DNA of 57,771 bases, counting the filler, from Sluysia triapertura (lineage: Eukaryota), in NCBI GenBank assembly GCA_046118255.1. It is 4 parts of 4 records of this genome, joined end to end, with 100 filler letters (N's around TTAATTAATTAA, not from the genome) between each part and the next. Parts side by side here need not be neighbours in the genome. Positions count along the whole stretch, not along the records: positions 1 to 13,321 come from JBJNIA010046569.1; 3 more parts are not named here. One strand, given 5' to 3'. Made by a program: the position numbers and the translations under genes. Below, piece after piece: positions 3,349-56,445 of this stretch (positions are counted from its first letter, which is position 1; every line of letters starts with the position of its first letter). The notes under the pieces were generated by a model. That model was given only the letters and a program-made list of their open reading frames with translations, had not been told where the DNA came from and searched no databases.

Positions 3349-3445
3349 TGTTAGACTTCATAAAATGGACTGACCGGGGATCAAACCCGGGACCATCGTC
3401 TGTGCAGTCGATTCTCTACCACTGAGCTATCATCCCCGTCTAACA
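3349..3445 (-). mobile_element. tRNA-derived short element with TGTTAGAC/GTCTAACA inverted termini (copy 1, full length)
   Basis: Reverse complement reads TGTTAGAC-GGGGATGATAGCTCAGTGGTAGAG...CCGGGTTTGATCCCCGGTCAGTCCA-TTTTATGAA-GTCTAACA, with A and B boxes. Homologous to copies at 11503, 41522 and 56347. Confidence 0.85.
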
Positions 3446-4309: not shown

Positions 4310-5019
4310 AAATATTTATAACAATAGAAGGTAGTCACTCTCTTTCTATTAATTATGTTGCTTTTAACAAATGGATTTTAATGCAGTTTTGTTACTAGCT
4401 TAAGCTAGCATAACAATTAAAAAATTTACGTGGTATTTTATTTCTTCATTAAAAAAGAATAAACCTATTAATTACAAACTTACAAATTTTATTTTATAAA
4501 ACTCGAAAATTTGTAGGACTCTGGAACTTCTTGACTTGCTAGTAAAATTCATTTAGCAGAAAATAAATTTGACCGAAGACAGTATTAAAAAACATATAAA
4601 TTGATGAATTGTCACAAACACAATTTTAAAAAGTATAATTTATGTCTGTTCTGGTTACGATGTTTACTGGTTATTTATATTCTTTTTATTAAAACAGTGT
4701 TATTTTCTCACTTGATTATAAAATTTAAACATTTAAATTTCCAAAATTATTAATTCAAAATTTGAACTAATTATTGTAATGAGTTATTATTAATGTCACT
4801 TTTCATAATAAATAATCTAATTATTATGATAATTATTAACATGGTAATTTTCATAAATAATCTAATTTAAAAATATTTATTGATAAATCATTAATTTAAG
4901 GCTAATGCATATGATTATCCTCATGATATTAAAAATTGTTTAATAAAAATTGTCACTTAATTTTTTATTATTTAAATTTAGTTTTTCACGTCTCAGATAT
5001 CAGATATCTACTGATATAA

Positions 5020-5950
5020 AAAAATCAAGCGCAAGTACACGTGTAAAGAAAGGATATTCTAGTTTGAAATCAACCATTCCCATTCCATTATTTATTAAGA
5101 TATCCTAAGTTTCTAATAATTGATTGTACTTAAGATTAACCATTGTATGTATATTATCAAGATTCACTATGCACGTTTTTTGATAGTCTGTATTTCGACT
5201 CAGACTAATTGATTCGGCATTACTATGTGCAGTTTGAAATGTAACCAAAACAAATTTCTGAAGTCCCGAATCACTAAAAATTTGATATTTAAAAAGTACA
5301 AGTTGTCCTTTTGGGGCATTGCAAGTTTTATCCCACGAATTGGATAAATTGTTTTTGATTTTCGTAGACCTAATTAATGTCCAACTAAGACTGATGGCTC
5401 AAATTTAACTCGTCTTACGCATATGTTTTTTGCATCTGTCAAACCACTTTATAACTACCAGCACCTGCATCAGATGCAAAGGAAGTGCTTGATTTATTAC
5501 TCTGAAATTTCAAATAATCATCTACATCCGGAGTCAAATAGTTTGGTTGATTGAAAAATTCCAACAATAATGAACCACACATAGCAAACTTTTTTGATTT
5601 TTCAATCCATTGTACTCTGACTTTTATTTGAATCACATTCAATAGCACTTGTGTTATAGTTTCAGTATCATGACTATAATTTAAAATATTTTCTAATATT
5701 GCTTTATGAGCACAATGATAATTTCTACCTTCAACTTAAGTACTATTAAATCATAAAATCACATTTTTGTATAATTCATGAAACATGTAACTCGAACATC
5801 TTCTTTATCAAGTAAATTTGTACTGCATTTCAACTCTCAACCCAGAAAATAATAATATATCATTAAGATCAAAGTGATCAGTTTTTGTTACGTATAGTTT
5901 AAATTTTACATATTTATTTATTACATGCATATGATAAAGCTGCATTTTAT
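5020..5950 (-). pseudogene. Decayed Polinton/Maverick/adintovirus-type major capsid protein (PY/hexon-like)
   Basis: Frameshifted blocks in canonical order: DHFDLNDILL; NYHCAHKAILENILNYSHD; RVQWIEKSKKFAMCGSLLLEFFNQPNYLTPDVDDYLKFQ; YKVV..VRRVKFEPSVLVGH*LGLRKSKTIYPIR; PKG. Compare the PY pattern YPYRAYIETLLNY / SKxFxMxGxLHxDxFxQxxYLxxGVD / VRRVKxSPSVxLAH..A.YPI. Confidence 0.8.
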
Positions 5951-6059
5951 ACAAAAACTCGATGAGAAAGACGATCATTATTTATCATTAATTACAGTTT
6001 ACAGTTTTTCGACTTTTTGGTTGATTAGAGGAAATGATACCGCTTCCATACTTGTGGTA

Positions 6060-6313
6060 AGAACTCTTTAGCTTTTTCAACAACAACTGTAATACTTCTT
6101 TTGCTTCGTCCATAGCATTTTTTCATAAGTTCAATTACTGGTGGTTCATTACCTAATGCATCTGTTATTCTACCTAAAAATCATGCAACTCCCTTAATTA
6201 AAGGAAAAGATAGTCTTCCGAATGTTCTTAACCACCCAATACCATATTGTTTCCCAGCAAAATGTGGTAATTCACCACTAATTTGTGGTTGGTTAAACTT
6301 ATATTACTTCCAT
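6060..6313 (-). pseudogene. Decayed Polinton/adintovirus small core protein (pVII/pX-like)
   Basis: QPQISGELPHFAGKQYGIGWLRTFGRLSFPLIKGVA*FLG matches the QxG-LPxFxG-QxGxG-LxxLxRxxxPLxK pattern of the small gene that lies between penton and hexon in these elements. Confidence 0.72.
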
Positions 6314-6339
6314 TTTATTATTTCCTGATTTAACTTTTT

Positions 6340-7190
6340 GAAAGCCTATTCTTTCTATATATCTGTATTGTTTATAGATGTTCATGATCTAGATAAATAA
6401 ATAGCATTTTTTACAGTTACAGTTACTCTATCATGATTTTCAATAATGGTATTTTTTATTTCCAACAAATTAAATTCAAATAAATGTACATATGATTCAT
6501 TATTATTCAGTAAAAGAGAGTTATCTGCTGCATATACTATTTCTTTACCAAATCTATTAAAACTAAATCTTTAAGTTGTAAAACCGTTTTATTATTTCAT
6601 GATTCAACTTTTTGAAAGCATATCATTTCAGATTTAATTGCATCGATAAAAATAGTTTATAAAAATATTTATATTGACTCACATGTATTGATTCAACTTC
6701 AAATTCAGCTTAATATTAAGCGTTTTTTATCATTGGCGAATTGAAAAGGAACATCAATTATAAAATAACCAGCATTCTTGTTTAGAAAATCCAAAATCAA
6801 TATTAAATTTCCAGATGGATAATAATTTTATTTTTGTCAATATAATAATGCTACTTACGTAATAATCCACGTTTTTAGTATCATTTTTTTATTTTCCATA
6901 AAAGCATTAATCAAAATTTCGTTGATCTATTTTTCTGCAATACATGATTTATCAATAAGTTTATTTTTCTCACAAACACATTAATGATAGCGTAAAGTTA
7001 AATTTTGGCCATATTAATTTGTTACTAAATAATATTCTGTTCCACAACTAATTGAAGTTTTGTAGAAGTTATAAGTTATTCGATTAGTACAACTTCCCCT
7101 CTACTGGATTTCGATAATCCACAATTATTTAAATGACTTTATTGAAATCTGTAATTATACATTCATTGATATTGTGAAGAATCTGGAATT
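6340..7190 (-). pseudogene. Decayed Polinton/adintovirus minor capsid protein (PX/penton-like)
   Basis: Blocks RFFTISMN..ITDFN..RNPVEG/EVVLIE (cf. FxxxLxSN..NxxxxF..PxxLxGxWEVxLxEI), YYPSGNLILILDFLN (cf. GxYxxxxxLIxxLN) and NAIYLS..SINNTDI (cf. PxYxPV..IxxIxI). It lies upstream of the core and MCP genes. Confidence 0.6.
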
Positions 7191-7214
7191 ATGCTCAGAT
7201 TCGGATTCGGAATT

Positions 7215-7460
7215 TTGTTGTGGGACATTATGTATAAAAGCTACAACTAAATGTTTGTTTTCCATCAATAATTCAACTTTAGATCTGCAGCATGCAGGAT
7301 CTCTAACGCATAATTAACCGCAGCAGATTTCATGTTATTAAAACGAAATCCAGACCACATTGTTAATATTTACTCATGGCTATTATATTAATTGATCATA
7401 ATTAGAAAGTGAAGTTTTGCCTGTGTTAGCATGAACCACATTAATACAATTGTGAAATCG
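7215..7460 (-). pseudogene. Decayed superfamily-3 helicase fragment (parvovirus NS1-like)
   Basis: HNCINVVHANTGKTSLSN (Walker A-like, 7404-7454), then SGFRFNNMKSAAVNYALE/DP (Walker B-like, ~37 codons downstream, needs one frameshift), then KVELLMENKHLVVAFIHNVPQ (motif B'-like). Confidence 0.5.
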
Positions 7461-7804
7461 CATCATGAATATATTAGTTTCCACTTTTCTCAGACTTTTA
7501 ACATTAAAATTTTTAGGAGCCGTAATCATGATCAACCAGTTTGTCTTATAGTGAAAATCGTTTCACCAATTATTATAAAATTTTACTTTCAACTTTTATT
7601 AATTAATTCTTGTTATATTGATTTTTGAGTTTCTTTTTGTAATCATGCTATGTTTGTTCCAATGAAATATGAATTGGCACAGATGTAACCAATTCACATT
7701 TCACTGCTTTGGCAGTAAAATTTTAATTTTTAATGAGGTGAAGCAATAATTCATTGTTACGTCATTATTATGGCTGGAATTGACGAAGAAATAAATAAAA
7801 AATA

Positions 7805-8085
7805 ATTGATCAAACACTATAAATATTGTTGGAATAAGAATGACGAAGACTGAAACATCTATCGTAATGTTGACGATCCAGAGACCTTTATAAGGTGTTG
7901 AGACCTTGTGGAGACTTGAGATGAATTTGGAAGATCTCTGGAGGCATTAAAGTGCCCTTGTGTTTGTGAACCTTGAGATCACTTGAGACCTTATTGATCT
8001 TTAAGTAATCTTGTGAAGCATTCGAGACCTTTGAGTAATTTAATAAAGTATTTGAAATCTTTAAAACATTTGAGAAATGGAGTAT
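7805..8085 (+). repeat. ~290-bp dispersed repeat with internal ~9-bp periodicity (copy 1)
   Basis: Aligns by eye to the reverse complement of 48730-49030 (shared TATAAGGTGTTGAGACC, GAACCTTGAGAT, CTTTAAGTAAT) and to 37925-38080. Confidence 0.8.
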
Positions 8086-8259
8086 TTGAGGATTTTTAAT
8101 ACTGGCTTATTTTTCTTATAAATCGGAATTCCCGGTACGTTGTTCAAAGAAAGAACGCATCAATAAAAACAGCAAATGAAAAACCTATTCAACCGAATAT
8201 TGTTCCCGTTATCATAGACTTAACTCATGGTAACGATGCTCAGTGGTCAGAGAATGCCA

Positions 8260-9078
8260 ATGCACGAGAAAAAACTTTTCTTTAATGTCGGTTTGTCACT
8301 CAGGCACTTTGTCACTCTGAGGAAGTTTTCCGGACACCACAATACCTATGTTCCGAATATTGTCAGATAGTTGGTTGGAATCATCATGAACATCCCGAGT
8401 TGCCTTCCAGGTCAGTATGGATGGACGATACCTGCAACAATGCCATATTAAAAGAAAATGATGCAAGTTACCTCTCACTTGTATTAGGTACCATATTCTT
8501 TTATGTGCCTAATCCTTGTGAAGCAATGATGAATATGACTAGAATGTTCGGTGATAATGATGAAAAGCAAGATGATGGAAAGGTTGATGAACCTGAAGAA
8601 GATGACGAAAACGATTGTTGATGAAGATCCAGCTGCTCGTGAAAAAGATGTTGGTGGGGATGAATTAGAAGAAGGTTATGGTGATCAAGAAGATGATGAA
8701 GAAAAAGGTGATTGTAAAAATGAAAATCCAGTTTATGAAGAACATAACAATGACGAAGAAGACGATGAAGATGAAAATAATTGTACTGATGAGGAAGATA
8801 ATAATACCAACCATGCTGTTCATACCTCACCTCGGAGGGAACGACATATTGGTGATGTAGCTGCTTGTGAAAAAGAAGACGTTATTCCTGATGAAGACGA
8901 AGATTATAATGAGAGTGATGGTCCAGGTGTGGAAGAAGACGCCATGGAAGAAGATGATGATAACATGGATCATGCTGCTTCAAATTCAACACGAAGAGAA
9001 GAACAACATGGCGATGGAGATTTCGCTGCTCGTGGTTGCCAGACAGTAGTCGTTCCTGTTCCAGTTGTTCCTGATTGA
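8260..9078 (+). pseudogene. Frameshifted coding-like region: MYND-like motif followed by a D/E-rich repetitive tract
   Basis: YLCSEYCQIVGWNHH upstream of and in frame with the 8400..8621 ORF. The acidic ORFs 8400..8621 and 8551..9078 overlap in different frames. Confidence 0.4.
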
Positions 9079-9439
9079 AATGAAGATGGTACTGTGGATG
9101 ACACATAGTCTTACCAGTGCTGCTGCATTTTTGGAACCCAAAGATGGATCTTCAACTGTTGGAGACAAGGGCCCATTGTTAGCAGAAAAATGGATTGAAG
9201 ATAGATCGGCTGTTCGAGTACTCGTTTTTTTAATTTTAATTTTTAATTTTTTTACTCTGCTTGATCTGACCTTTTTTCTGAGCTGTAAATGTGTGCATGA
9301 TGTATTTTTCTTTCATGTAGTCGAAATATTTTTATCATTTTTATCCTCTTTATTATGTTGTTGTTGTCGTGCCCTCTCTTTCCTTCAATCGCAAAATACA
9401 CTTAGGGGCCGGTCCTAGTAATAAGGACCTTTGGCTCTA

Positions 9440-10740
9440 TGAAGATGAAATATAGTCATTCTTCACTTGTTTTCGTTTCCCAGATATTGCTCTTGTTACT
9501 TCCTTGTGTGACCCATACTATAAGAATCCCATTCTTTTCAAACGTTCCATTCTTGGATATCTCCCGGGCTGCCCTACGATTTGTGCAGTAATCTGCATCA
9601 AATTTCATTTTTTTTCTCAGCGCATATGTTCTCTTCTTGACATCAAGAGCACATTTTCCCTTTAAGCTCCAGAACAATTCTTATGACTGTGGAGTCATGC
9701 TTTGTGGGTGTCTAGAGGCCATCGCTTTGCGCCGCATCCTCTTGGATATCGATCCACATGCAATTCGTTTCTTTCTCCCTAAAAAGTCCTGCCTTAACGA
9801 ATTCCAGTCTGCATCTCGACAGACTCGGTTTGGCCCACAAAAGAAGAAAAATGGGCCTGAAGTCCAACATCTCGTCCCACCTAAGAAGGACTACCATCAA
9901 CCTCCGCCAAGAGCAATAGTCCCTCACTGGAACAATGTTAAGCGCACATTCTCCCAAATTGTTAAGGGGACTAACTCTGCGCCAAAATGTACAGATGTCA
10001 AAATCTCATATCCTCTGCACCTAAGCCGCCTAACCCGAAATGTAACAAAGTCACTCTAATATAGCTCCCCTAAGGATGTCGAAACATCCAACCCTAAAGG
10101 TCGCGAGATTCTTTTTCAAAAAAATGAAAATGGAGGAAAATACCATTCCATTATAATAACCTCCACGTCACTCTGAATTATGTTATCAACCCTGCTACGA
10201 AGGTACTGAAATCCTCCATCTATGTAACAAAAGGGTTCACCACTAACAACATCATACTTACCATCGACGAGGACACATTTTTCTGTATAAAATTAAATAA
10301 CATAGAACCTCGGCCTATTAATAATATACCCACACTGACTGATACCGTCGTCTCTCCTATCACTTGTCCCGGTGAGGCTTTGAAAGTGAAACGATTGGCC
10401 ATGTCTTATGTCTGTGCCCTCACAATGTTACGGGTGGTACACTGAAACATAATAAGATACTAGAATGCCTCTCTAGTAAACTTATACAAAAGGCCTTTTC
10501 AGTTAAGAAAGACACACAAACCCCTGTTACTGATGACTACCGAAGACCCGACATTCAGACCCAATCTATCCCAACTCTTTCTCATTGATGTCAAATCACC
10601 CATCGATGAATACGACAAATTTAGAGCGGCCAGGTCTCTTAATATTGCTAAGTACTCTGATCTTAGGGTTTCCCTTGATACCTTTGTAGTGATGGACTCG
10701 GTTCATGGGATCCCGAAAATAACATTCTCTTAAAAAAGTT
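9440..10740 (+). mobile_element. Internally deleted NeSL-like (RLE-type) non-LTR retrotransposon
   Basis: Ulp1/C48 protease motif QNNSYDCGVM (~9670-9700); RT-like YHSIIITS..LLRR..QKGF (~10140-10240); zinc knuckle ETIGHVLCLCP plus KHNKI (10388-10460); RLE motifs RPDI, IDVKSPID..F.AAR..IAKY and GLGSWDPEN (10541-10723). Confidence 0.8.
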
Positions 10741-11502
10741 AAGTTTCCACAAATCTGATATCACTGATTGAGTTGGCGCGCCAGTGTATCAAGCTGTCCT
10801 TGGAGTCGTCATTTAACATTTACAAGGATCATTCTTTCCAGAGTCCCACTTGAATACTGGGCATCTGTTACTATCTTAGTTCTATCAGAATTTCATTTTG
10901 GAGCATTCTACTGCGGAATTTCCAATCCAATGTATACTGTTTGGGTACTCTTTTTTCTCTCAGTGTTATTTCTTGCAGTATTTATTGTATGCATATTTTC
11001 TCCTTTTCTACCTTTGAATTCATTTTTCGGGCATCCCTAATTTGTACAAAATGTTTTCTTCCTCTTCTGGGTGTTTAATTTTATTTTGTCCCTGCTTTGT
11101 AATAATACAAACACTCAATTGTTTCTCTTTTTATTTAATTATAATTCGACAACAATTTCCCTCTTACGCTTCCAATTTCGTTTTTGCAATTTTAAAAATA
11201 AAATACAAATTTTGTTTTCTTTCTCGTTTACGTTTGCTTAACATACTCCCCTCTCCTTTTCATTCATTTTTGTACATGTTTTTGTATGATGATATGCCTG
11301 TAATCCTCAGAGTTTATATCTCTTGTTATGCAGCAGAAGTGGCAGCAGCAGCATGAGCCAGTTTTTAGAACAATGTTGACTTTCACAAACATTAACAAAC
11401 ATTTTTGTGATCCCCATAATTTTGCCTTATTTATACATATAATTATTATGCGATTGTCTATATGTAAAACCTGTTATGCTGTTGAAATAAATGTTTTAAA
11501 TT

Positions 11503-11554
11503 CATCGAACTGCGCAGCGAGGGATTCCGGGTTCGATTCCCAGTCAGTCTAACA
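11503..11554 (+). mobile_element. 5'-truncated copy of the tRNA-derived element (copy 2)
   Basis: CATCGAACTGCGCAGCGAG...GGTTCGATTCCCAGTCAGTCTAACA followed by an (AAT)n-like tract. Confidence 0.8.
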
Positions 11555-11763
11555 ATGATAATAATAATAATGATAATGATAATAGTAAGAAAGCTTCGGA
11601 GAAAGAGTTTAAAAATATGAAAGAAATATATCATCACTTTTAATTAGCAAGTAGATAATTTGTTAGGTATCAGAAATTAACTATAATTTCGTATCAGTGG
11701 AAATTTTATTGGTTCTTTCAATCCAACTGTCGTAATATAAATAAAACTATCTTTCTAGCTTAC

Positions 11764-11866
11764 TTTGTTGACAAAAATATCCAGAACTCCAACTTCGTAC
11801 GATCTGATCATCAATTGGGTATTTCGTTTTTCCAGAACACCCCAGGCCGCTTTGGATAAGTTGGCA
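11764..11866 (-). CDS. TDP1: Tyrosyl-DNA phosphodiesterase 1 C-terminal exon (fragment, possibly pseudogene)
   Basis: Flanked by TTTCAG| and |GTAAGC. Encodes (S)[28 protein letters not shown], near-identical to the TDP1 signature [22 protein letters not shown]. Confidence 0.85.
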
Positions 11867-13321
11867 CTGAAAATATAAATAAGAGAAAACTACTAAAAAT
11901 ATAAAATAAATACTCACTACTTACTCAAGTTAATATTATTATTAAAACTGAGTATATCATTGCTGATGGAAAACAACGAAGAATAAAACAATAAAACAAT
12001 AAAAATGGATTAATGCAAACACAATTTTAATGGTGATCGATAAACCTCGACACGACTTGGACGTCGTGAGTTCTCGAGCACCATCGCGCAATTCGATAAA
12101 TTGTCTGAGCCACGACTCGTCTTCTGATAAGATAGCAGTCAAAGACAAATTATTCTCTACTTCTTCTTTTGACGTCAATAGATCTAAGTACCATAAAATA
12201 GCTTATTAATTGGCAATACTGACACCAACTTCGTGTGCTCATTTGTAGTTTGTATGTGCTATAATTAAGACCTCTTATAACATCATAAAAATAAGCTTTG
12301 TTTACGTACTCGTTTTGAAAACCATTTATAAGTAATTTATAACTAATTGGTTGAACTCTATCATGAATTTTAAGTGGACTATCTTGCCTGCATTTTCATT
12401 TGTTACAATCTTCAGTTCTGTCATTCAAATACTTGACAATATAACGTAGAAGCTCATTCGAAGTAGCTCTTTCCATTTAAATTTGTTTATCTATGCTAAT
12501 TTCATCAATTAATTAATAAATCTACTTTGATCTTCGTTATAATTTTATTAATTTTTTAATAATATTTTATAATTGTTATAAATGTTTTAGAAATAAAAAT
12601 GAATGTCATAAAATGGAAAAATAATAATGATGATACAATAACAATAAGAGAATAAAATAAAGAATGGAACAGTACTAATAAAAGGATGGAAACAATAATG
12701 ATTTTAACAACAATGATGCGATAATAACAATTTTAATAAAAATGACACTACTATTGAAATTCGTATTGTTATTATGCTGCAATTGCGTTGTTATATGGTG
12801 TGCAGATTGTTTATTTCAGTTTATTTAAATTGTGCTATTCAGTGATTATTTGGTGAGTATGTTAAATTGTGTTGAAGCTTGTTCATGATTTTGCTTATAA
12901 GGAATGTGTTATTTTGTGTTTATGTTTATTATTAGAGTCGAATACATAATAGCATTCTCAGTTTAAAAAATGATTACTGAAGAATTGAAGATAAAAACAG
13001 CCACCAACATTCTGTACAAAATATTTACAAGCTAAACACACCGTGATTCACAACACAGCCGTTCAGTTGGCACCTTTTATATCCCTTGATGCATTTCTAT
13101 TTTTACAATTTCAGAACTTAAAACTTCATTCATCTAATCGATAGCATTCAACAGGCCCTTAGAGGAGCGATGAATGAATTTCTCTCATAAAGAACAGTGC
13201 ATTTTATGAAGTCGAGTATCTATTATACTTGTTTTCTTGTACGTTGTTTGGTTTTTATTTTATATATACTTTTTCACCATGCACACTGTTCATTACTAAT
13301 ATAATTCTGAATTATATATTG

Positions 13322-14763: not shown

Positions 14764-14817
14764 CTAGTTTGTCAATCTATAGGTTCGAATCCCCTGAATT
14801 TTTCATTCAGCTGTAGC

Positions 14818-15092
14818 ATGCTTAATAAAGATCAGTTTTCAAAAGAGAAGATAGCCAAAACTGATACTTCGACTATCGATACTCAATTGATACGATCTGA
14901 TCTAGTCAATGAATCACGAAAATTCAAGTCTGGTTGGTGCCTTTACGCTACGACTCTAGAGGGACTATGCACAAAATATGGAAATAACTGTGTATACGCT
15001 CACAATGTAGATAAACTTAAGGACAACTCTCCTTGGATGGAATGCTCAATACATCATTACCACCGAATCCAGCAATTCATTTCATCTTTAAA
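14818..15092 (+). CDS. CCCH zinc-finger-containing exon
   Basis: RKFKSGWCLYATTLEGLCTKYGNNCVYAHNVDKL: C-x9-C-x6-C-x3-H with a (R/K)(Y/F)K(T/S) lead-in and AH motif, as in TIS11/unkempt-type fingers. Confidence 0.7.
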
Positions 15093-16039
15093 AGTAAACA
15101 TAATTTCTTACTTTGACTATAATTATGTAATAGTATTTTATCATCCTTTAATAATTTTTAGACAAATGAAATAGGCCAAGGAAGTTACGTGCAAATTACA
15201 AATTCGAAAATTAAAGAACAGTACATTTTTTAGAAGAAATATAAAATAATTAATATAAAAATAAAATAATAAATATAAAAAATAATTATGTCTATTTTTC
15301 AATTAATGTTATAATAATTTATAAAATAAATTTATAAATAATTTATAAAATAAGAAATTTTCGTATTATCATTTGAATTCAAAATAAATATATTATTTTT
15401 CAATAAAAAATTTTATAAATCATGAATTTTATTACAACAGTTATTGAAATAATAGAAACAATTTTAGAAATTCAAGTTGCTGAAACTATTGACATCAGAT
15501 TAGAAGAACAATTAGTAAATATGTATAATTATAATAATCATAAAATTTCTAATAATGAGGCTATCTGGGCCATTAAGTAGATAAAATTAATTAATTTTAA
15601 TAATTAATAAAAAAATTAATGATCTAATAAATAATCTGAAATGGAAAAATACATTTCAAGATTAGACATTTTCTGACACAAGTTCAAGTTGAAGATGATC
15701 CAATCCAATAAGCGATATTATTTCAATCATAAAATAACTTTTCTGTGAACTCTTTCAAATTTACCAGATTGTACAAAGTGCTTTACTCATTTTAATTACA
15801 GAATAAACATTTTGCTTTTCTTGCAAATAATCAAACACATATTTCTTTAATTGGGTGCACAAAAATAAATTACATTCTTATTATTATGCTTTATAGAAGT
15901 TAAAATTATTTTATTAGTTATTAAAAGATTGATCGTGACATTTTGTTACCAATATGATTTATATGCATTATTATTATTATTTAAATAAATTATTATTGTA
16001 AAATTCAATTTCTACTATAATTAAGTTAATAAATCTAAC

Positions 16040-16315: not shown

Positions 16316-18400
16316 CTAAATAAATATTTTTTGGAATTTGGATTATTGTTTTATCATTATATAGATCAAAATTCAAAATAATGAAATAAGTCTATTGCTA
16401 ATTTTAAATTCACCAAAAATATTTTCTAGATATTTTTACTAAACATGTATAATTCAATTTTTTATTAAAATTCTTACAATTCGTAGAAGAAACTTGTAAT
16501 AATGATTTAACATTTAGTGTAAAATTAAAATATTTAACTTCTATAAGAAAAGTTTAATATAATAAATTGCATAATTTGTTACGATATTTTTCCAAGATTT
16601 TAATATGGACGATTTTAAACTATAAAAATGGTTTTAATTTGCAACAAGGTTTTTAATTCGATTCGTAAAAATGAACCAAAACTTTTCCGAAAGATTTTAA
16701 TTTCATATAATTTTTAATTGATTACACAAAATCTTTCAACAATCTGAATTTATATTTAAATTACAAATGATAAAAAACAGAAAAAATAATAGAGATAATA
16801 ATAATTTAAACAGATTATCAAGATAATTTCAAGCTATATTTTAGAAAAATATTTTGCTCAGCTACCTTATTTAAAGAGTAGCTATGAAAAATTGACAAAA
16901 TGACTTTACAAGATGCAACGTTAAAAGTTGCGTAAAACTTATCAAAATTAAACTAACGAAATGAAAATAAGTTGTGTTGGATCCCATCTACATAGTGCAT
17001 AAATTAATGACTTAATATGATTTACATTAATGATATTATTTTGATTTACATTAATAACATTCATCATTTAATTCTGGTATTTTATATTATTTATTGTTAT
17101 ATATTTTTTAATTTATGATTTCATAAATATTATAAAATATTTAATATTATTTCTATTATAAAAATAAAAATAATTTTTCTAGAAAACAAATTAAAAAACT
17201 ATAATAAATTTTTGATTTAAATTTGTTTAAATCAATCAATTTTAAAAATAATAAGAACAAATGACAATATAGCGAACTGTATTATATAAACAAGTACAAT
17301 TTGGAATTACTCGCCATAAAATTGCAAATGAATTTTATTCGGACTTAAAACAAGAAGTTCGATTTTTCTGAAGTCAACGTCACATCCATGCAAAAGTAAT
17401 TTCATATTGTTTAAGTTTTATGTAACTCTAATTTTAATATAATAGGGTTTTCTGAAATCGAGGCATTAAGCTTAAGTTGTTAAATTTATTATTATTATAC
17501 ATCTTGTTACGATGTTTTTACTTGTAGTTAATAAAGTATTAGGATAATTTGGATTTTATTATTATTAATTAAAATCTTTATTATTTTGGTCAGACCGTAA
17601 CATAAAACAATATTACACTTATCAGACCGTAAAAAGGCTGACTTAAATTACAAAAATTCAATTTCAGTGAGAAATATAACTTTTATTTTACGCACTGATC
17701 GTAAGTATTCATATTTTGAAGGAAGTAATTTAAATTTTTTGTACAGTGATATAAACATTCGGTAAGTTATAAATTATCGGTAAAAGATAATTGCTCTCTT
17801 TTGTAAATCTAATTAGAATGTCTTCACCCAGATATAATTAGTCGGACTAACCTCAGAACCTGTTCATTTTGCAAGTTAGCAGTTGTAAGCTTTGTAATTG
17901 AACAAATAGAGCTACGGGTCAATAAAAAAATTAAGGCATTAAGGTTTTCTTATTAAATAGTAAAAATATGATCTTGAAGGTCAAAATAAAAAATTTCTTA
18001 AAACAAAATTTATTTTTATAATCCAAAAAATTCCTTTAAAATTTTATTATAATAATTATATTAAAATAATTTGAAATTAATTTAATACTTACTTAATTTT
18101 TAAAGTATTATTTTCCACAATATTAAATTAACAATCAATAATTAAAAAAACGATTATATTAAAATCAATAATTTTACAATTGTGTATTAATGTGTACAAA
18201 GTCAATTTACTATTCAATTTACAAATTATCATGTGTTACTATGTATATTTACATTACTACGTAATAATAATTATATTATTTGCATTATTAACTTTTACAT
18301 TTTTAGCTGATATTTAAATCACAAATCTGTACAGTTGAAAAGTGATTGATACTAAATAATATTTATTTAGAAATAATTTAATGAAAATATTATAACTAAC

Positions 18401-19143
18401 TTTAATGCATGGTTTCTTTGGTAAATTCAACCGATTTGTTTCTTTTGTAGTAGTTTTAATAACAAAATTACTTGTATATATATCAACGATGGCGGCTGTA
18501 GTTAAAATAGGTCTAGTGTCCGGTGGATGAATTTGTATACGATAAGATTCTTCACGAATCATTCCTGATGTACTAGTGTGACTGAATCCTATGCCAGTAA
18601 TGCTATTGAAGAGAATTTTCAATTCGATTTTACCAGATTTTGATAAGGCACGCTCGGATATGTTTTTATTTTTCATGTACAATTTTAAATCAAATGTAAA
18701 ACATTTCTGATAATAAGGATCCATGTATTCATGAAAATCTCTGAAATCACACCTTTCATTGTTTACATCGCAATAAAATAACAATGTTTCAATTGGTAAA
18801 TAAAGATTTAATTTTCTTTGATAATACAATTTCATTATTTCAGCGTAAATCATTGGTGATTTTTTGTGTTGATAATTTTCATACCTTTCCATGACTATGC
18901 TTTGTACCATTGGAACGACTTTATTTATGTAGAATGTAAAAGTAGTATTGTAACGTTTTATATAAGCTTCTGGCATAGATTCATTAAATAGTTCATATAT
19001 AAAATTAAATACACTTTGACAAAATGTGACGTGTGGAAAATCGTCAACGCTTGATTTAATTTCTGTAATTTCAGTATTTATTGGAGTTTCGTAAAATCGA
19101 CCAGCTACGTCTTGTAAGTGATAATATAATCCAAATATTGATC
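18401..19143 (-). CDS. DEG/ENaC (amiloride-sensitive channel family) exon: end of TM1 and extracellular domain
   Basis: Open from the AG acceptor at 19144-19145: SIFGLYYHLQDVAGRFYETPINT..FPHVTFCQ (FPAVTxCN motif), DPYYQKCFTFD (GNCxTFN-like), RIQIHPPDTRP, RLNLPKKPC. GTTAGT donor at 18400. Confidence 0.88.
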
Positions 19144-19716
19144 CTATTTTGTTTAATAATTATAATGATAAATGACAAATTAATTAATTAAATTTTATAT
19201 ATGCATCTAAACATTTTGTAATTAAAAGAATTTAAAACTTGAAACATTTCTAAACAAAGGCTAAACTGTTTTAATAAATGCAATTGGTGGAATGATATCA
19301 GTGAAAACTATTTGTAAGATGTAGTAAAAATTAAAGTGCGATTTAGAAACCTTATCTATCACCACTTTTCGTATTATAATATTTTAATAATTTTTTAGTT
19401 TTCGTTAGTTTAAATTTTTAGTTACTTTAATCTTCAAAGAATTGCAGAGAAAGCTGTCAACCTATTTCAAAAGCAAGAAACGTAACCATCGTTTAGATCC
19501 ATGGAAGGACCCGCGATCTTTTGGAAATCCACTAAATAGATCAGGGAACTGGTTATCGCACTCACTGACAGCTACAGTCCTTGTGGAGAAGGCAGTATTT
19601 TATTTTTAAATAAAAAATGTAATTTGTAATTGGTGACAAATAAGTTAGAAAGTATCTGGTCATTTAATTATAAGTAGTATTAAAAAAACTGTAATTTTAA
19701 TATAATTTACTGAATA

Positions 19717-41521: not shown

Positions 41522-41619
41522 TGTTAGACGGGGCTGATGACTCAGTGGTAGATCATCGAACTGCGCAGCGAGAGGTCACGGATTCGATCCCCGGTCAGTC
41601 CATTTTACGAAGTCTAACA
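41522..41619 (+). mobile_element. tRNA-derived element with inverted termini (copy 3, full length)
   Basis: TGTTAGAC-GGGGCTGATGACTCAGTGGTAGATC...GATTCGATCCCCGGTCAGTCCA-TTTTACGAA-GTCTAACA. Confidence 0.88.
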
Positions 41620-46857: not shown

Positions 46858-48412
46858 ATGCTTATGTTCTTTATGCTCCAGCAGTCCATGTATATGAATA
46901 AGTACAAAAGGAAGAATTTAAGAAACGAGCTATCAATTTCTCCTAAAGCAAATTTTGGTGATTTAAATAAACCAACTTCTCCCGTTGAAAATAAAACTAC
47001 CAAAGTAAATGAAAATAAAATGAATTTAAAGAAAACAGAAAGACTTCAAGAAAACAATCATAAAGCTGATGGTAAGACAATCAGAATTTATTTATGAAAT
47101 ATTTATTTAGGTGTTAGCATCATTTCCGTAACAATTTTAAAAGCAATTTGTTTAGAGTCTTGGAATAATATCGCTGCACATCTTTATAAACGGAGTAACG
47201 AAGTTGATTTTGGTCAGACCATGCGACTTTTCCGTGTACTAATGTTGACCAGATTTAGACGAATTGTTGTTTCAACGGCGGTGGAACTTACAGAGGCTCT
47301 GGCAGGCAAAATTGATCAACATCAAGTTGTACGCGAATCCATGATAGATACAGATACCATAGACTTACATAAAGACTGTAAAATTGTCGATAATATTACG
47401 ACCAAAAAAGTAAGCGACTTCAAAAGAGATGCTAAAAGCGTAATCGATTTAAAGACATATGTTGAAACGTTAGATAAATTTAAGACATATGTTGAAACGT
47501 TAGATAAATTTAAGACATATGTTGAAACGTTAGATAAATTTAAGACATATGTTGAAATGTTAGATAAATTAAAGACATATGTTGAGACATTGATTGATTT
47601 AAAGACTTTTGTTGAAACGTTAGATAAAATAAAAACATATGTTGAAACATTAATCGATTTACAGACATGTTGAAACGTTAGATAAATCAAAGAAATATGT
47701 TGAGGCATTAATTGATTTAAAGACTTTTGTTGAAACGTCAGATAAATTAAAGACATATGTCGAAAGTTTAAATTACTTAACTAGATATGACGGAAGTTTA
47801 AATAAATTTATTGAACATACTAATAGTCCTAACTTGTACAAAAATATGACAGAATATTTAGCTTATCTAGCTCATTTGCATCTTGGAGACATATTCTGTA
47901 TTTCCATTAGAGACTTGGGTGAACGAACGGACGTCTCCGAATGGATTTGGAAAGATCTCAACACACTCTTTTGGTTTACTGGATTTACGTCTGGTTCAAT
48001 GAAGCAGGATCATCAGAGAACATTTCCCGTCATCGAGATTCATAAATCGTTAGACTATATAACGTTTTTATTGATTGTCTATACTTTTCAAAATTCTGAC
48101 ATTTTTAAATTCATAACATTTATCAAGACCTTTTTAAAAATGGACACTATTCTTATATGTGATGCTTTTGTTATGACTTTTTATATGTTTCGTAAATTTA
48201 AAATCAAATACATGCATTCACTTAGTTATATTTCATTTAAATTTTTTAATAGAGACAATTTAAATTATTATAATATTTTGAAAGACCTTAAGTCTTATTT
48301 TGCCCTAAATATAATTATAAATCTAAATCTTAAATATTTCGTAAGCATACCCCGGTCATTACACATGTCACATTCAATTCATTCTAAGTATAAAAAATTC
48401 AACATTCCATAA
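46858..48412 (+). CDS. Hypothetical gene or pseudogene containing a 10-aa tandem repeat
   Basis: Co-oriented ORFs 46858..47097, 47221..47673 and 47834..48412; candidate 40-nt intron GTAAGA..TTTAG near 47072-47110; frameshift inside the repeat. Confidence 0.45.
47452..47779 (+). repeat. 30-bp minisatellite (~11 units, AAGACATATGTTGAAACGTTAGATAAATTT; encodes KTYVETLDKF)
   Basis: Directly visible; the first three units are identical. Confidence 0.95.
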
Positions 48413-48729: not shown

Positions 48730-49030
48730 GTGATTTTATTTCTTAAATATTTTAAAGACTTGAGCTACTTTATTAAAAGATCTTAAATGCTTAACAAGGT
48801 TTCAACATTACTTAAAGGTCAATGAGGTCTTAAATTATCTCAAGGTTCAGAAGTTCAAAGATACTCTAATACCTTTAAAGTTTTTCCAAGTCCATCTCAA
48901 GCTTCCGCATGGTCTCAACACCTTATATAGGTCTTTGGAATACAAAGGTTTTCTTCAGCTGTCAACATTATTATAAATGTTTCAATCTTCATGAATCTTA
49001 CTCCAACAGTGTTTGTAATGTTCTATCCAT
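48730..49030 (-). repeat. ~290-bp dispersed repeat (inverted copy)
   Basis: Reverse complement aligns with 7805-8085. Confidence 0.8.
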
Positions 49031-49964
49031 CACTTTGTATTGAATAATACTGCATCTTTATAATTCCACGTGTTTCTTACTCTCTTCTTATTCAACAATT
49101 GGACAATCCCAACATTACTAATAAAGACAAAAATTCTAAAGCTTTGATTTTTTCTATTTCAGAAACTTTTTCATTTATTGACAAATCGCTAAAATCGCAA
49201 AACGACTAAGTCAAAATTCAAAGCTATGACATTTAACACGATAAGTCAATGGCCAAATTTATTCAATATCTTAACATTTCTACTGAACTTTTAAATAAAA
49301 TCGACATCGAAAATAAAAACAATCCTATAAAAACTGAGATTGTAAAATGTGCCATTAATCCTACGAATATAGCTGGAAATGAAAGTAAATACTCAGATAC
49401 TAACTACGACCTTCAGGATTAATTAAATGTTGCAATCCATCAATTTTAAAAGAATTTTGTTATTCTTTAGTAAGGACTTTATAAAATTTGTGTAATATTA
49501 AAATATAAGAACTTCAGAAAATAGTATAAATGGTTTTAAAATAATGACACATTAGACATTTTATAACTTTTTAGCATCTAAATTATTAAAATATTAAATC
49601 TTTATCTAAAAAATTCAAAATTATCAGACTTTAATTTTTTCGAAAAAATAATGTAATAAATTTTTATTATTACATTATTAACCTTTAACATATAAATAAC
49701 AATAACAAATATAAAATATGCTTTATTGTTATTAATTTTTACAAATAATTAACATATTTGTAAATGGAAACTATTGTTTTAATGACAATAGTGAATGAAA
49801 AATAGAAAATATAGCTTTACTATAAAATTATTATTAATTTAAATTAACAAAATTAAAAATAAAACATGAAATTTTAGTCAAATATTATAAATATAAAAAT
49901 CTTTATATGAACCTGGTTTTGGTCATTCAGTAATGAATTGATTTATGTCACTGACTAGTTAGTA

Positions 49965-56346: not shown

Positions 56347-56445
56347 TATTAGACGGGGCTGATAGCTCAGTGGCAAAGCATCGAACTGCGCAGCGAGAGG
56401 TCCCGATTTAATAATAATATGAACCCGGTCAGTCCATAATATGAA
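56347..56445 (+). mobile_element. tRNA-derived element (copy 4) with disrupted T-loop and no right terminus
   Basis: TATTAGAC-GGGGCTGATAGCTCAGTGGCAAAGCATCGAACTGCGCAGCGAGAGGTCCCG-[AT-rich]-CCCGGTCAGTCCA. Confidence 0.85.

Follow-up and report, generated by a model that had tools for sequence, protein, structure and literature searches.

Within the window, by which we refer to the whole 57,771-nt stretch of Sluysia triapertura DNA that was analysed, a penton-core-capsid block is a dead virion module, with its three pseudogenes and their order directly visible. As judged from its relatives, this module is the decayed remnant of a multi-copy Polinton/Maverick element of the adintovirus type. A helicase-like fragment is found upstream of it, and the best explanation of the whole, to which we would give a probability of about one half, is that a decayed Polinton late module stands beside a separate endogenous NS1-like fragment. 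Against the two parts being separate, they share one orientation and a similar state of decay, the distance between them is only a few hundred bases, and no significant integrase remnant is found where the relatives predict one. The features are collected in Table 1, and nothing in the stretch is predicted to be functional.

Table 1. Features of the viral block and its surroundings, in window positions.
Feature	Position	Strand	Evidence or remark
Major capsid pseudogene	5918-5012	-	Profile match, best segment iE 1.4e-31
Small basic core gene, pseudogene	6300-6003	-	iE 2.4e-14; gene precedes the capsid gene in relatives
Penton (minor capsid) pseudogene, C-terminal third	6585-6358	-	Profile tests
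46-nt direct repeat	6310-6355 and 6584-6629		87% identical, blastn E 1e-9
Multi-copy stretch grouped with the capsid family	6630-7070	-	Joints 6835 to 6925-6944
Candidate junction, single-locus depth	7048-7140		Depth 17-42, versus 96-840 and 143-360 on the flanks
Likely SF3-helicase fragment (NS1- or E1-like)	7559-7215	-	Walker-A-like word, degenerate Walker B, LLxE-like word
Very high-copy interspersed repeat, bounds the fragment upstream	7658-8078		Depth 6300-8600; loose ends 8078, 7658/7660

The virion module

A six-frame reading evidences minus-strand frames that are broken throughout positions 5000-7560. The first-pass annotation had described here four co-oriented, broken minus-strand relics, and this description holds for the capsid, the core gene and one third of the penton, while the helicase scores above chance but is not decisive. 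When one frame, with its stops written as X, was compared with 1.84 billion proteins by phmmer, all 33 matches at E<=1e-3 fell on the capsid part (best 2.7e-20). Frameshift-aware alignment covers 296 columns of the capsid with about 8 frame breaks and places the core gene at 6291-6003; within the capsid gene, frames extend from stop to stop over 97 and 98 aa. The profiles used for capsid, core and penton were built from the loci of metagenome relatives, and their matches confirm the earlier assignment to a Polinton/adintovirus penton-core-hexon module. The penton-like gene was recovered in its C-terminal third, which ranks top among 82 window tiles, its score being reached by 0 of 40 shuffles and, in a second profile test, by 0 of 270 tiles; the first two thirds have no profile match in the window. 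Repeated profile tests gave no match for the stretch at 6630-7070, which may hold the start of the penton or the tail of a preceding gene, neither being significant, and a second penton within 6590-7100 was likewise not significant. A penton-like match on the plus strand (7417-7512, score 50.2) was rejected, as unrelated tiles score 47-49. The score of the 46-nt direct repeat equals the best of 200 shuffles, and its first copy spans the end of the penton and the start of the core gene, so that a local duplication is likely.

With respect to the features by which Polintons are recognised, the block has a double-jelly-roll major capsid (the fold being read from the relative P0001), a single-jelly-roll penton, seen by its C-terminal third alone, and a small core gene between penton and hexon. 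Other genes are missing: in agreement with what had been noticed before, profile searches of the window recovered neither PolB nor integrase, and neither the A32 ATPase nor adenain. The rve integrase with chromodomain is absent or unrecognisable in the window copy, protein-primed PolB has no significant match, and the copy has neither the A32 packaging ATPase nor adenain, for which profiles were not significant after the capsid or at 9592-10059. Among the candidates that we rejected, a weak PolB match (6550-6834, iE 0.074) was gone under a frameshift-aware test. An integrase tail within 7240-6860, plausible by eye, had its score reached by 40/300, 46-122/200 and 53-147/150 shuffles and was not significant by hhalign (E 0.46); weak integrase-like words at 7241-7087, seen by hhalign and by the aligner, are also not significant. 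None of the 25 longest among 533 inverted-repeat pairs frames the element, and the copy is truncated.

Relatives of the module

A metagenome scan yielded 55 related loci from 81 candidates. The capsid proteins matched by phmmer are unnamed and about 410 aa long, and none of seven has a Pfam family. The model of the relative P0001 (pLDDT 87.6) matches double-jelly-roll capsids (E 1e-17), the best viral fold match, with 25% identity, being to a protein of a Cotesia bracovirus, and the pentons of the relatives fold like those of mavirus and adenovirus (E 2.9e-8). The capsid is not adomavirus-like in its sequence, an adomavirus-like lineage having been one possibility raised earlier: P0001 is only 11% identical to adomavirus LO7 in a fold comparison, against up to 63% to Polinton-type loci. 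In a capsid tree of 59 rows, restricted to those covering the window's segment, this segment falls within a 24-row clade (98/90), alongside loci of standard Polinton layout. Its branch of 1.99 and best identity of 39% mean that the relatives are distant, and its exact place in the clade is unsure. No candidate was confirmed when the capsid was scanned for by a word index with the 98-aa frame as query (0/59) or when viral contigs were scanned with capsid alignments (0/25 and 0/13).

On long contigs the relatives have a common gene order, namely A32, one or two small genes, integrase, one or two pentons, core, capsid, adenain and a small gene, which is followed by a large reverse ORF, likely PolB. 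Pfam confirms rve, chromo, A32 and C5 protease in these loci. In five of them we take the large ORF to be PolB from its size and a GDTDS word; in the PolB-like long ORFs Pfam finds endonuclease VII only. Wherever the upstream gene can be recognised, in 14 loci or about 11 once near-identical pairs are merged, integrase lies directly before the penton; the other 41 of the 55 end too early, lack the upstream part or, in the case of L041, have no penton. NS1, E1 or SF3 profiles matched in 0/55 related loci.

Some of the relatives show arrangements of their own. At L041:21-1520 an A32 ATPase stands directly before core and capsid, with no penton or integrase between, and tandem penton genes are present in L018, L020, L021, L043 and L053; duplicate pentons are also mentioned in 10.1101/2024.03.25.586562. 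Cargo or neighbouring genes include a TBP-like gene, a ubiquitin-conjugating enzyme, a dual-specificity phosphatase and a RING finger (L021:225-2866, L008:2-1260, L001:1710-2168 and L035:6502-6966).

By analogy with these relatives and with established Polinton biology, the parent element would have built an icosahedral double-jelly-roll particle. Like its intact relatives it would have replicated through a protein-primed PolB, packaged its genome through an A32 ATPase and integrated by means of an rve integrase encoded directly before the penton. The window copy would then have lost its replication, integration and packaging genes and been truncated at both ends, and would now be decaying. 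The window thus adds a decayed Polinton of a short-capsid clade that has no name and is represented in metagenome contigs by intact but unannotated members; this is useful for mapping the host range of the clade and is not surprising.

The helicase-like fragment

The NTGKT, RDP and LLMEN words reported previously are indeed found, all in a single frame of the upstream piece. A motif-C-like word occurs near 7180-7160 in the same frame, profile alignments ending at 7206-7255, and the acidic pair of Walker B is not intact. As SF3 references we used vertebrate NS1, shrimp and insect-type NS1, and three E1 sequences. With vertebrate NS1 and E1 profiles the match hardly extended past the Walker-A-like word. 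Invertebrate NS1 profiles aligned in order over 7560-7215, their scores being reached by 1 and 2 of 300 shuffles and by 6 and 9 of 374 tiles; for a mixed SF3 profile over the same positions the figures are 0/300 and 1/374, and in a further test of SF3 profiles 0/150 shuffles and 2-5 of 216 tiles. A 51-sequence SF3 profile scored 53.9, which was attained by none of 500 shuffles and none of 448 tiles (best tile 53.1). Among 17 single-sequence tests one, with an E1, reached 0/100 shuffles, and a D5-like sequence, the only one tried, gave a score at chance level. As several profiles and settings were tried, we hold that the piece is probably an SF3 helicase by its sequence, of NS1 or E1 type. The parvovirus-NS1-like SF3 helicase proposed initially is plausible but weak as SF3, and it may be E1-like rather than NS1-like.

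A somewhat doubtful alternative is that the words of the upstream piece arose by chance in decayed repeat DNA and do not mark a helicase, possibly lying over an unrecognisable integrase or other gene. The piece has no Pfam match in single frames, no phmmer match among 1.84 billion proteins and none in a PDB sequence search with the helicase frame, while hhalign of one frame against SF3 gives a probability of 2% (E 0.022). The narrow distance between the 51-sequence score and its best tile, the 1-12 of 374 tiles that exceed other SF3 profiles, the single success in 17 single-sequence tests, the number of profiles and settings tried, the broken acidic pair and the integrase-like words already described all favour chance. 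On the other hand, every multi-sequence SF3 profile peaks at the same place and strand with its motifs in order, control profiles (A32 and integrase) are at chance there, and reversed and plus-strand controls score 34-35 as compared with 53.9. A KDM6 match in another frame, under the Pfam cut-off, was taken as chance.

It is very improbable that the fragment derives from the packaging ATPase (A32/FtsK) of the element itself, moved beside the penton by a deletion; such an ATPase had been named beforehand as a reading that would overturn the helicase. In the relatives A32 does share its strand with the integrase and lies upstream of it, L041 has it directly before the core gene, and the fragment contains a Walker-A-like word; however, an A32 profile from 10 relatives is at chance, its score being reached by 125/300 and 120/150 shuffles, and its alignment misses that word.

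A further possibility, which we regard as unlikely, is that in a real virus lineage the virion module of a Polinton was joined with an SF3 replicase of parvovirus or papillomavirus type, and that the locus is a shortened fossil of this lineage. The helicase would in that case either replace PolB and integrase, in an adomavirus-like manner with rolling-circle or helicase-driven replication, or be an accessory gene. The parts lie on the same strand, are closely spaced and are both multi-copy, the SF3 profile keeps its order through about 110-120 columns, interrupted by 2 breaks (0/500 shuffles), and no trace of integrase is seen where relatives have one. There are also precedents for replicase swaps in adomaviruses (10.1101/341131), meldviruses (10.1101/2024.03.25.586562) and group 2 Maverick-Polintons, in which swaps to SF1/SF3 helicases are described as frequent (10.64898/2026.06.19.733378). 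Against such a lineage, the related loci have integrase in that position wherever it can be read and SF3 in none, the relative capsid is far from adomavirus LO7, and Pfam detects no HUH nuclease or other replicase part upstream in any frame of 7000-7600 or 7600-9600. That the locus belongs to a multi-copy family of fossils of an undescribed animal DNA virus, with a parvovirus-type SF3 replicase and a Polinton virion module, is in our view slightly less probable still.

A motif scan of viral contigs gave 1 NS1, 3 E1 and 23 phage AAA loci, and in further motif scans none of the 22 in-frame matches was an NS1, while L056-L243 held no capsid of the window clade. Five intact NS1 loci are without capsid, core or penton of the window clade.

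Copies elsewhere and the junction

We have viewed other copies through the contigs of one public run at 80% identity; this run is possibly the assembly's own source and so is not independent. The capsid region is multi-copy (50 contigs differ at 5201 and 22 at 5533), and other copies of the helicase-like patches occur in 13-15 contigs. The depth drops between the two regions (Table 1), where the candidate junction is bridged by the locus's own contig and is crossed by none of the 15 joints listed out of 16. Three of these 15 lie within the capsid-family stretch, five tie patches within 7182-7483, and the remaining seven tie 7271-7542 to a repeat at about 7650. Among the loose ends listed, 14 contigs depart from the left patch at 6972 and 6 from the right patch at 7204, running on for a median of 233 nt and 255 nt, respectively; these ends are long enough to reach the partner, yet they run into other sequence, which also counts against a chimeric lineage. 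The GC content is 0.31 in 7070-7560 versus 0.23 in 6310-7070. Taken together, the depth drop, the joints and the loose ends softly favour a meeting of two repeat families at this point; contig evidence is itself soft, in that old copies match in patches, many joint sides are shorter than 30 nt and depth does not equal copy number.

The separate-fragment explanation accommodates these results if the SF3-like piece is a member of another repeat family of parvovirus-like origin, which would have come beside the module through insertion or deletion. Neither a target-site duplication nor a terminus of an NS1 insertion could be identified, and no parvoviral VP neighbour or terminal hairpin was found beside the fragment. 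The proposal of one virus uniting NS1 with a Polinton capsid has no support in this evidence apart from adjacency: the SF3-like piece lies beside a virion operon at the window locus only, the relatives have integrase in that place, and among the joints listed no other copy displays the junction.

The high-copy repeat upstream has a 71% copy at 48738-49041. Positions 4611 and 7819, the latter within this repeat, are joined in a contig of depth 23 with 6 letters between; the joint comes either from an allele that lacks the viral block altogether or from paralogous sequence in which two repeats meet.

Comparison with known systems

The window resembles Polintons and adintoviruses (PMC8502044) in its penton-core-hexon order, double-jelly-roll capsid and multi-copy decay in an animal genome, and degraded adintoviruses are described as widespread in animal germlines (PMC8502044). 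It differs in lacking all of the rve and chromo integrase, A32, adenain and large likely PolB of intact relatives, in having no recognisable ends, in carrying an SF3-like scrap where relatives have integrase, and in the short, unnamed capsid of its clade. For the fragment, endogenous densovirus and parvovirus NS1 elements are a parallel, being multi-copy, truncated and frameshifted; such insertions in invertebrate genomes are multi-locus and often truncated, and multi-copy ones are documented in flatworms (PMC6880638, PMC13055364). Unlike these elements, the fragment has no VP gene or terminal hairpin in the window.

Adomaviruses combine SF3 with a penton-core-hexon operon (10.1101/341131; 10.1101/2024.03.25.586562), as the window would if the adjacency were genuine, but the window has no LO7-type hexon, and no Cah/LO4-like gene or adenain was recognised in it. 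Adomavirus genomes are circles of 9-20 kb, whereas the locus is an integrated fragment. In group 2 Maverick-Polintons and PLVs helicases replace pPolB on related capsids (10.64898/2026.06.19.733378; PMC11161782), with SF3 domains that in general form part of a fusion protein with a polymerase or an AEP primase, unlike in the window. Gene exchange between Polintons and parvoviruses is documented in bidnaviruses and bidnaparvoviruses (PMC8502044), where NS1 and a parvoviral VP accompany a Polinton PolB, so that the proposed chimera would be the reverse pairing. An NS1-plus-Polinton-capsid virus was not found in the literature passages searched. The presence of an NS1-like gene in some nematode Mavericks, as stated earlier, was equally not found there or in the main text of the nematode Polinton survey PMC10748475, in which the words parvo, helicase, HUH and NS1 never occur. 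If the junction were recurrent, it would add to the pairings seen in that literature one of an NS1-type helicase with a Polinton capsid, with a bearing on the origins of adomavirus-like genomes; a true chimera would mirror the bidnaviruses and be the counterpart of adomaviruses among invertebrates.

Genomic setting

The window contains animal exons in a sequence rich in AT, with a GC content of mostly 19-30%. Positions 8140-11000 are occupied by a multi-copy element that is richer in GC (0.40), with an acidic low-complexity frame at 8539-9078 (+) and a further broken frame from 10128. A QNNSYDCG word within 9592-10059 (+) presumably recalls Ulp1-type proteases; the element has no Pfam match, nor is it matched by the adenain profile. 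A tRNA-like sequence at 3366-3436 (-), matched by Rfam and uncalled by ARAGORN, and a 48-nt word repeated at 11502-11549, 41553-41600 and 56378-56425 are likely tRNA-derived SINEs. Host exons lie at 11400-13300 (-), 14764-15174 (+), 18314-19159 (-) and 47098-48412 (+), the identities being a tyrosyl-DNA phosphodiesterase, an unkempt-type CCCH finger, an ENaC/ASC channel and exportin-like pieces, the last of which hold an in-frame 30-nt tandem array at 47390-47866.
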